From the IMG/VR virus record IMGVR_UViG_2802429241_000005: a stretch of 7,500 nucleotides of DNA; one strand, given 5' to 3'. Under the pieces are notes generated by a model. It was not told the DNA's origin. It made no database searches and worked only from the letters and a program-made list of their open reading frames with translations. Shown here one piece after another: positions 6,130 to 7,500 of the stretch (position 1 is its first letter; each line of letters begins with the position of its first letter). The translations under genes were made by a program, and so were the position numbers. The stretch comes from a virus. Lineage: Duplodnaviria; Heunggongvirae; Uroviricota; Caudoviricetes.

Positions 6130-7500
6130 ATGTTTATGAAAAAAATATTCGCAGCCTCTGTTATATTTGCAGTTTCAGCAAATACTTATGCATATAATTC
6201 TTATAATGCCGGTGATAATAGCCAGGCAACTGATAGTAATGCGACAGCTATTGGTGCATATGCAAATGCTTCAGGTTCTTCTTCTACAGCAATAGGCGCT
6301 GTTTCAAAAACCGAAGGAGCCTATAATACTGCAATTGGTTCATATTCTTCATCTCAAGGTAACTCATCGTCAGCTATTGGCGCAAATGCAAATGTTGTTG
6401 GAAATAACTCGGTAGCCATTGGTTCATTTAGTAAAGTAAACGGTGATTCAGCTATAGCAAATGGTGCGGGTAGTGAGGCAGTCGCTAATTCTACAAGTGT
6501 AGGTGCTGCGTCTAAAGCAACTGGGGAGAATAGTGTTGCATTTGGCTCTTCCGCCCAGGCGACTGCAGGAGATACATTAGCTATTGGTGTAGGGGCTACA
6601 TCTACTGCAGAAAATGCTATCTCACTAGGCTCACAGAGTGTAGCCGAACATAATAATAGTGTTGCCATTGGCGGGGGAAGTACAACTGACAGAGAGTATA
6701 GTGTATCTTTTGGGACGGGTAACACTAATCGACAATTGACTCATGTTGCCGCAGGTACTGAGGATACTGATGGTGTTAACGTTAAGCAGCTGAAAGATTA
6801 TACTGGGAATGAGATAGCTAAAAATAATACTGTAATTAATCAAAACATCAGTAATGCCAAGAATGAATCAATGGCATATACAGATCAGCAGGTTACCAAA
6901 AATAATGCTGTGATAAATCAGAATATCAATAATGCCAAGAATGAATCAATGGCATATACAGACCAGCAGGTTACCAAAAATAATGCTGTGATAAATCAGA
7001 ATATCAATAATGCCAAAAGCGAATCAATGGCATATACAGATCAGCAAGTTACCAAAAACAATGCTGTGATAAATCAGAATATTAATAATGCCAAAAGTGA
7101 ATCAATGGCATACACTGATCAGGAAGTTACGAAAAATAACGGCGTTATTAATAAAAACATACAATCAGCAAAACAAGAATCATTCGCATATACTGATGCA
7201 AAGTTTAACCAAATTGATGGGAAGATAAATTCAACATTTAAGCAGTTGAATGATAAGATAGAAGCTAATGCTAAAAAAGCTAATGCAGGTATTGCTTCTG
7301 TGGCAGCAATGACCAATATCCCGTATGTGAATAACCAGACATTTAGTGCCGGCGTTGGGGTTGGTAACTATAGAAACGGTAATGCAGTAGCTGTCGGTGT
7401 TCAATATAAACTTAATGAAAACACCAATATTCGTGCATCGTCTTCGTGGAATAATACTGATGGAGCAGTAGTCGGAGGGGGTATTGCTGTAGGTTGGTAA
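6130..7500 (+). CDS. Trimeric autotransporter adhesin (YadA-like; possibly Eib-type prophage-borne adhesin)
   Basis: 456 aa (or 454 aa from the second ATG at 6136, MKKIFAASVIFAVSANTYA signal peptide). Repeated NSVAIG / TAIG / SxAIG YadA-head motifs; neck-like RQLTHVAAG...GVNVKQL; Asn/Gln-rich repeated stalk; C-terminal anchor ...GIASVAAMTNIPY...GVQYKLN...GGGIAVGW ending in Trp; TAA stop at 7498-7500. Confidence 0.85.
   Translation: MFMKKIFAASVIFAVSANTYAYNSYNAGDNSQATDSNATAIGAYANASGSSSTAIGAVSKTEGAYNTAIGSYSSSQGNSSSAIGANANVVGNNSVAIGSFSKVNGDSAIANGAGSEAVANSTSVGAASKATGENSVAFGSSAQATAGDTLAIGVGATSTAENAISLGSQSVAEHNNSVAIGGGSTTDREYSVSFGTGNTNRQLTHVAAGTEDTDGVNVKQLKDYTGNEIAKNNTVINQNISNAKNESMAYTDQQVTKNNAVINQNINNAKNESMAYTDQQVTKNNAVINQNINNAKSESMAYTDQQVTKNNAVINQNINNAKSESMAYTDQEVTKNNGVINKNIQSAKQESFAYTDAKFNQIDGKINSTFKQLNDKIEANAKKANAGIASVAAMTNIPYVNNQTFSAGVGVGNYRNGNAVAVGVQYKLNENTNIRASSSWNNTDGAVVGGGIAVGW
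6820..7131 (+). repeat. Four near-identical in-frame 78-bp tandem repeats (26-aa unit KNNAVINQNINNAK[N/S]ESMAYTDQQVT) in the adhesin stalk
   Basis: Read directly: units at 6820-6897, 6898-6975, 6976-7053, 7054-7131 differ by a few bases; a degenerate fifth unit follows to about 7209. Confidence 0.9.

Follow-up and report, generated by a model that had tools for sequence, protein, structure and literature searches.

Is the tandem array in the gene at 6130-7500 of a 7,500-nucleotide stretch of Caudoviricetes DNA (IMG/VR virus record IMGVR_UViG_2802429241_000005) a fixed part of the encoded protein, or a module by which that protein can change its length? The whole stretch is referred to here as the window; the gene lies at its end and encodes a YadA-like trimeric autotransporter adhesin, and the array consists of 78-bp units. 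The best explanation, to which we assign a probability of roughly 0.85, is that the array is a variable-number tandem repeat (VNTR) in which a coiled-coil module of 26 residues recurs along the stalk of an uncharacterised Escherichia coli adhesin of this family. The properties that make up a VNTR, namely similar head-to-tail units in frame and a unit number that differs between closely related alleles, were both found.

Tandem Repeats Finder reports 4.1 copies of a 78-bp period at 6820-7139, with 91% matches, no indels and a score of 500. Cut at intervals of 78 bp, the array consists of four good units that span 6820-7131 (the unit starts are in Table 1) and a degenerate fifth. Neighbouring good units differ at 7, 5 and 7 bases (units 1-2, 2-3 and 3-4) and non-neighbours at 10-15, corresponding to identities of 91-94% between neighbours and 81-94% over all pairs. 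The degenerate unit differs from units 1-4 at 26-30 bases (62-67% identity), and the 78 bases past it, at about 40% identity, are unrelated to the array. The array is in frame with the open reading frame (ORF) at 6130-7500, as (6820-6130) mod 3 = 0, and each unit encodes 26 residues with the consensus KNN[TA]VINQNI[SN]NAK[NS]ESMAYTDQ[QE]VT, which may also be written KNNAVINQNINNAK(N/S)ESMAYTDQQVT. At a lag of 78, identity within 6820-7131 is 0.919 versus 0.30 +/- 0.045 at other lags, and 2000 codon shuffles gave 0.35 +/- 0.03 at that lag with a maximum of 0.457. The 7, 5 and 7 base differences between neighbours translate into only 2, 1 and 1 residue differences, so that most are synonymous; this suggests that, besides recency, the peptide is under selection. 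A preliminary description, made from the letters of the window, had proposed four consecutive in-frame 78-bp units followed by a degenerate fifth, and all of its coordinates and the frame are borne out. Its statement that the units differ by a few bases also holds between neighbours (5-7 bases), whereas its term "near-identical" is slightly generous at 81-94%.

A shorter period within the unit was considered as well. A 39-bp half-period (13 residues, KNNAVINQNINNA / KNESMAYTDQQVT; 57% matches in Tandem Repeats Finder) is too weak to be accepted as a real sub-repeat, its 19/39 identities being reached by 293 of 20,000 shuffles (1.5%). It could be the trace of an older duplication or an effect of AT-rich composition alone.

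The same description had located the repeats in an adhesin stalk, and this assignment is supported by profiles, structures and a model. Pfam YadA_head (69.7 bits, cut-off 25), YadA_stalk, which represents the neck motif (32 bits, cut-off 28.4; residues 202-242, profile positions 1-41 of 43), and YadA_anchor (32 bits, cut-off 22.7; residues 401-454) all score above their cut-offs. Among solved structures, the head matches those of YadA (1p9h, E=1e-21) and BpaC (7o23, E=8e-22), the neck aligns to the YadA and BpaC necks, and the anchor matches that of YadA (2lme, E=2.5e-6) and also that of AtaA; the match to EibD is weak (E=1.2e-5). An AlphaFold2 monomer model (mean predicted local distance difference test score [pLDDT] 71.8, predicted template modelling score [pTM] 0.42) shows regular short strands at residues 25-204, an uninterrupted helix at 218-394 and anchor strands at 405-414, 417-429, 432-441 and 445-454; residues 1-23 have pLDDT < 50. 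The repeats correspond to residues 231-360, with pLDDT 75-89, and therefore make up most of the stalk. The anchor, head, neck and stalk by which trimeric autotransporter adhesins (type Vc, YadA-like) are recognised are thus all present, and the stalk is predicted to form a trimeric coiled coil, the trimer following from family membership. In relatives, the annotated start is the second ATG, equivalent to 6136.

Whether the unit number varies was addressed by comparison with relatives. Of 5426 complete E. coli genomes, 29 (about 0.5%) carry the adhesin gene, at 92-96.6% identity and always annotated simply as "YadA-like family protein"; it is present on a few IncF plasmids as well, at about 83% amino-acid identity. 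The best gene match to the window allele is 96.6%, and at most 27% of the window is found together in any one genome. Units were counted directly in the fetched loci (L001 and so on), "good" units excluding the degenerate one. Two good units are present in L002 (402 aa), three in L003 and L004 (428 aa), four in L001, L006, L007, L016, L017, L018 and plasmids L005 and L019, and five in L008, the sole 5-unit allele. By match length, the 2-unit form and the 3-unit form are each represented by a pair of independent complete genomes (H16/H17 and H26/H27), from strains of different countries. Eleven further complete arrays, of 2, 3 or 4 units, came from metagenome and IMG/VR contigs searched by pattern. 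Every array of 2-5 units stays in frame, in agreement with the earlier proposal that such arrays can expand or contract without breaking the frame; an equal copy number in all related genomes, which had been named beforehand as the outcome that would speak against it, was not seen.

Other collections yielded little. An exact look-up of the window protein and five close homologues in a large protein collection found none of them, and a word-indexed protein search gave distant relatives alone (<=55% identity) without returning the close E. coli homologues, probably owing to low-complexity words. In a contig scan in which each species was represented by one genome, the matches were confined to Proteus and very distant sequences.

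To follow how the number changes, each distinct unit sequence was labelled with a u-number and the arrays were then mapped. The first, last and degenerate units are fixed in position in every allele, and gain or loss is confined to the interior units. Lineage A has the array u06-u07-u08-u09 and the derivatives u06-u07-u09, u06-u08-u09, u06-u09 and u06-u33, where u33 is a hybrid with its 5' part from an interior unit and its 3' part from the last unit. Misaligned crossover or slippage would be expected to produce just such a junction. The two different 3-unit forms imply at least two independent events or crossover points, and together with the hybrid unit they point to repeated homology-driven events. 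In lineage C, u13 is followed by 0-3 copies of u14, interior units that are 100% identical to one another, and then by the last unit, u15 or u17, which differ by a single base. Substitutions can also be common to several units of one allele: L001 has Leu (TCACTG) in its units 1-3, and L005 and L019 have Thr (NITNAK) in all four of theirs. Allele-specific substitutions of this kind are read as a signature of concerted evolution.

The most informative comparison concerns L001, L002 and L004, which have 4, 2 and 3 units and show 0 mismatches over 684 + 291 = 975 bp outside the array. Because the remainder of the gene is identical while the unit number differs, the unit number changes faster than point substitutions accumulate. 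The chromosomal flanks of these three loci (uspF, ompN, nifJ) differ by 34-58 mismatches per ~6 kb (0.6-1%), and the strains originate in China, Russia and Australia; an identical gene in diverged flanks suggests recent horizontal spread of the gene or of the prophage end.

The window allele has a history of its own. An allele resembling it, u30-u03-u04 in L020 and L024, is exactly one unit shorter, and units 3 and 4 of the window (6976-7131) are base-for-base identical to units of these loci. The head (6136-6819) is 97% identical to lineage A, whereas the stretch of L020/L024 that aligns to window positions 5174-7082, head included, is only about 83% identical to the window. The window allele thus looks mosaic, which suggests recombination between alleles within or beside the array. 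The longest perfect lag-78 repeat of the window measures 53 bp; plasmid L005 has one of 36 bp, and L001, L007, L006 and L008 (4-5 units) and plasmid L019 have repeats of 92-261 bp. Being shorter than in most relatives, the 53-bp repeat would place the window array among the less labile ones; its units are more diverged than in most relatives, and change here is probably slower. The earlier suggestion of recent or ongoing copy-number change, which had been drawn from near-identity of the units, therefore stands for the gene family, with its 4-, 3- and 2-unit alleles without a mismatch in 975 bp, and near-identity is the weaker argument for the window allele itself.

An indel of another kind was seen in L016, where a 3-bp in-frame insertion at 3920-3925, at the start of the last good unit, changes KNNAVI to KNNAVMI in two O155 strains. 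This indel, which does not comprise a whole unit, would shift the coiled-coil register by one residue.

The array might instead be a fixed structural feature, that is, an old internal duplication kept similar by purifying selection alone, with no meaningful ongoing change in the window allele. No two window units are identical, differences of 5-7 bases with 1-2 residues between neighbours are what selection on the peptide predicts, and the longest perfect repeat in the window is just 53 bp; in addition, the count is four in 23 of the 29 complete genomes, as if this length were preferred. We nevertheless consider this unlikely, as alleles identical outside the array hold 2, 3 or 4 units and a window-like allele with one unit fewer exists. 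Identical interior units in several alleles (u12-u12; u14 two to three times), together with the substitutions common to several units, require recent duplication or conversion beyond selection. Even the 53-bp repeat exceeds the approximately 25 bp of identity generally quoted for efficient RecA-dependent recombination in E. coli. It is very unlikely that the differences in copy number are assembly artefacts in which identical 78-bp units have been collapsed or expanded. Interior units of lineages A and C are identical or one base apart and could be collapsed by short-read assemblers, and the metagenome and IMG/VR contigs, which are probably short-read assemblies, tend to have fewer units (2-3). 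However, the array does not exceed 468 bp, its first, last and degenerate units are distinct and serve as anchors, and the 2-, 3- and 5-unit alleles are found in RefSeq "complete genome" records. The recurrence of the 2-unit and 3-unit forms in independent strains from different countries also argues against collapse, and the two distinct 3-unit forms and the precise hybrid u33 fit recombination rather than collapse.

Surface adhesins often undergo phase variation through repeats, and for badA slipped-strand mispairing has been put forward (PMC8859334), which raises the idea that the array is an on/off switch for adhesin expression, a contingency locus. This idea is extremely unlikely here. 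The unit is 78 bp, or 26 codons, a multiple of three, so the frame shift that such a switch requires does not occur, and all arrays of 2-5 units are in frame. Moreover, the inactivating lesions in relatives lie outside the array. They comprise an N-terminal frameshift in five RM/TK/YC genomes (L007, 6003-7367), a gene-splitting 10-bp deletion in two chicken isolates (L018, 3007-4361) and an IS2 insertion in the anchor (L008, 6007-7437, the 5-unit allele); the Proteus penneri copy (L010) is also frameshifted.

For the VNTR, a simple mechanism can be proposed in which misaligned pairing of neighbouring units changes the copy number, by replication slippage, by unequal homologous recombination between sister or homologous copies, or by both. 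The longer the stretch over which units match perfectly, the higher the rate would be expected to be; this stretch is 53 bp long in the window and reaches 261 bp in relatives. The hydrophobic period of the array is 3.70-3.73 residues, with a spectrum peak at 3.72-3.73, close to 26/7, although a periodic sequence has spectral power only at harmonics of 26, so that the period is a matter of consistency and the register is taken from a simple spectrum. On this basis, 26 residues would form seven helical turns at 3.71 residues per turn in a non-heptad coiled coil, and since a unit would then comprise seven whole turns, its gain or loss would keep the trimeric core in register on both sides. At 0.15 nm per residue, a unit of 26 residues would account for about 3.9 nm of stalk, and the 2-5-unit series would span about 12 nm. 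The distance between head and outer membrane would change accordingly, which might tune how far the head is exposed beyond the lipopolysaccharide or capsule layer and thereby also affect adhesion or autoaggregation.

In a simple phase assignment, the core face of the unit comprises N2/N3, I6, I10, K14 (beside A13), S17 (beside M18), T21 and V25, with polar residues (Asn, Ser, Thr) at about half of these positions; polar core-facing positions have likewise been reported for Saa (PMC13580157). The variable units of three related adhesins have 26 (11+15), 37 (11+11+15) and 41 (11+15+15) residues, with their strongest hydrophobic periodicity at 26/7, 37/10 and 41/11, respectively, all about 3.7 residues per turn. 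It is conceivable, at somewhat less than even odds, that the geometry of a non-heptad coiled coil, one whose core is partly polar, allows only quantised unit lengths. If so, these stalks would represent a natural series of register-preserving "length cassettes" and a model for the indel tolerance of polar-core right-handed trimeric coiled coils, and they could reveal whether the length of a stalk is adjusted to how thick the O-antigen or capsule layer of the host is.

Besides the limit on the hydrophobic period given above, several points weigh against a VNTR that adjusts the stalk. For Saa, repeat number and binding are reported to be uncorrelated (PMC4060028, citing Toma et al. 2008), and a functional effect is therefore not a given here. 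Several relatives are pseudogenes, and selection on the gene is therefore not universal. The window units are comparatively diverged (5-7 differences, mostly synonymous), and this allele may be fairly stable. The evidence comes from the comparison of alleles, and change within one culture would be an extrapolation from it. Short-read metagenome and draft assemblies could have collapsed identical units, although the 2-, 3-, 4- and 5-unit states each also occur in complete-genome records. Finally, the structure is a monomer model only, with the modest scores given above.

The remainder of the window shows how the gene is carried. The adhesin gene stands at the end of an island that contains an integrase, an excisionase-like gene, an IS3-family insertion sequence (IS) element and an ORF with an invasin D4 domain (Table 1). 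The C-terminal ~70 residues of the integrase look out of frame, and the integrase is probably frameshifted and inactive. The IS3-family element sits between the integrase module and the adhesin gene, and the 233-residue Invasin_D4 ORF may be a second small cargo gene related to surface or adhesion functions. In the AT-rich region upstream of the adhesin gene, the point from which relatives are similar varies with the lineage (5508, 5971 or 6044); part of this region thus appears to travel with the gene into other contexts, and the region presumably holds the promoter and regulatory sequences. We take it to be a candidate for H-NS-type silencing. A promoter scan of the upstream region gave 3 promoter-like matches versus 6.3 expected from shuffles, and no promoter is therefore assigned. 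The antisense ORFs at 6631-6843 and 7119-7316 were set aside as mechanical ORFs within the adhesin gene.

Table 1. Features of the 7,500-nucleotide window (coordinates of the window; residues are those of the 456-residue adhesin)
Feature	Position	Strand	Basis or remark
Arm-type tyrosine integrase ORF	1-1113	-	Good Arm DNA-binding domain; Phage_integrase profile positions 3-77 of 172
233-aa ORF with Invasin_D4 domain (E=2e-7)	2588-3289	+	In a 38% G+C stretch
IS3-family element	3631-4805	-	orfA HTH_Tnp_1 4494-4805; orfB rve integrase core 3631-4458
AT-rich region upstream of adhesin gene	5508-6129	+	27% G+C at 5501-6000
YadA-like trimeric autotransporter adhesin, complete gene, 456 aa	6130-7500	+	ORF, Pfam, structure matches
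Probable signal peptide MFMKKIFAASVIFAVSANTYA	6130-6195	+	Hydrophobic N-terminus ending A-x-A (...SANTYA), read from the sequence
Head, left-handed beta-roll of YadA-type repeats, residues 25-204	6202-6741	+	Pfam YadA_head, 4 stretches
Neck/connector and stalk start, residues 202-242, motif RQLTHVAAGTEDTDGVNVKQL	6733-6855	+	Pfam YadA_stalk
Stalk, one continuous alpha-helix, residues 218-394	6781-7311	+	AlphaFold2 monomer model
Unit 1, "first" unit	6820-6897	+	Position conserved in all alleles; T at residue 4
Unit 2, interior	6898-6975	+	Class varying in number; allele-matched L020/L024 lack exactly one interior unit
Unit 3, interior	6976-7053	+	Identical to interior unit of metagenome loci L020 and L024
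Unit 4, "last" good unit	7054-7131	+	Position conserved; marker ...TACACTGATCAGGAAGTTACG (DQEVT)
Unit 5, degenerate	7132-7209	+	Once per allele in all, number constant
C-terminal membrane anchor, residues 401-456, four beta-strands per chain	7330-7497	+	Pfam YadA_anchor, 2lme

Relatives of the gene are found in other surroundings. In L001, L002, L004 and L016 it stands at the tail-fibre end of a lambdoid prophage, beside uspF-ompN, and in L007 at the tail-fibre end of another prophage; L003, L006, L008, L017 and L018 carry it in an asrABC/IS21/omptin island, and L005 and L019 on IncF plasmids. With the integrase/IS3 island of the window, this gives at least five genomic contexts, and the adhesin gene is therefore best regarded as mobile cargo. 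Its sources are mainly cattle, poultry, wildlife and the environment, and some strains carry the label STEC (E. coli that makes Shiga toxin).

In-frame repeat variation in adhesin stalks is already established, and no concept is changed by this gene, which is an unnamed addition to a well-known class of length-variable adhesin stalks. What it adds is an uncharacterised and horizontally mobile E. coli adhesin to the trimeric autotransporters with whole-unit stalk variation (Saa, Cha, BadA). The array offers a ready-made typing marker and calls for caution in short-read assembly and in length-based gene calling. In addition, the natural series of 2-5 units provides isogenic-like length variants with which head projection could be related to adhesion or autoaggregation.

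Literature searches found no paper that names or characterises the present protein, and its place is best seen by comparison with known systems. The Eib proteins of E. coli are prophage-borne YadA-like trimeric autotransporters of similar size, and several relatives of the present gene occupy the tail-fibre end of lambdoid prophages, where Eib genes sit. However, EibE shares only 25% identity, on which value identity as an Eib is rejected, the EibD match is weak, and the 78-bp array was not seen in the Eib matches. Periscope proteins have highly identical stalk repeats whose strain-variable number changes the projection of a distal adhesive domain (PMC9704523), and the functional logic of a variable-length repeat stalk is the same. 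They are nevertheless monomeric, with independently folding repeat domains, and trimeric autotransporters are excluded from them by definition (PMC9704523); the units described here are segments of one predicted helix in a trimeric family, and assignment to the Periscope class fails on this point.

Recombination among repeated stalk modules has been described for BadA (PMC8859334). The passenger of Cha, a trimeric autotransporter from the Haemophilus cryptic genospecies, contains tandem peptide repeats in varying number; this variation is reported to modulate adhesive activity and is linked to adhesion, biofilm formation and immune evasion (PMC9704523). Cha belongs to a different organism, and the likeness drawn here is one of description. 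The Cha unit has 28 residues, equivalent to four heptads, as against 26 here. YadA of Yersinia has the beta-roll head, neck, coiled-coil stalk and four-strand anchor in the same order, whereas at an identity of about 31% the present protein is not YadA itself. Periodicity in the stalk of YadA is likewise non-heptad, at 15 residues (15/4 = 3.75), not far from 26/7 = 3.71.

Judged by sequence, the nearest relative outside E. coli is a YadA-like protein of Proteus columbae and P. penneri, which is 54% identical over its full length and has the same architecture. Its stalk array is in the same position, begins KNNxxINQNI...YTD and has a period of about 3.7 (41/11), whereas its unit of 123 bp (41 aa; 2.8 copies at 90%) corresponds to the 26-residue unit with a 15-residue insertion.

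Among characterised proteins, Saa of STEC, encoded on the pO113 family of plasmids, is the closest analogue. Like the present protein, it is a YadA-like trimeric autotransporter from E. coli, similar in size (496 aa in L032), with a tandem array of near-identical units at the same place, between neck and anchor, and its units share the motif YT[DN]xQV and have a hydrophobic period of about 3.7 (37/10). Alleles of saa differ in size through the number of direct repeat units (PMC4060028). The two proteins differ in that identity is 30% over 313 residues (28% by tblastn) and in that the Saa unit, measured directly from a plasmid copy, is 111 bp (37 aa; 3.8 copies at 99% identity) as opposed to 78 bp (26 aa) here; the low identity and the 37-residue unit lead us to reject identity as Saa. 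Their locations differ as well, Saa being found on STEC megaplasmids and the present gene in integrase/IS islands, at prophage ends and on IncF plasmids.

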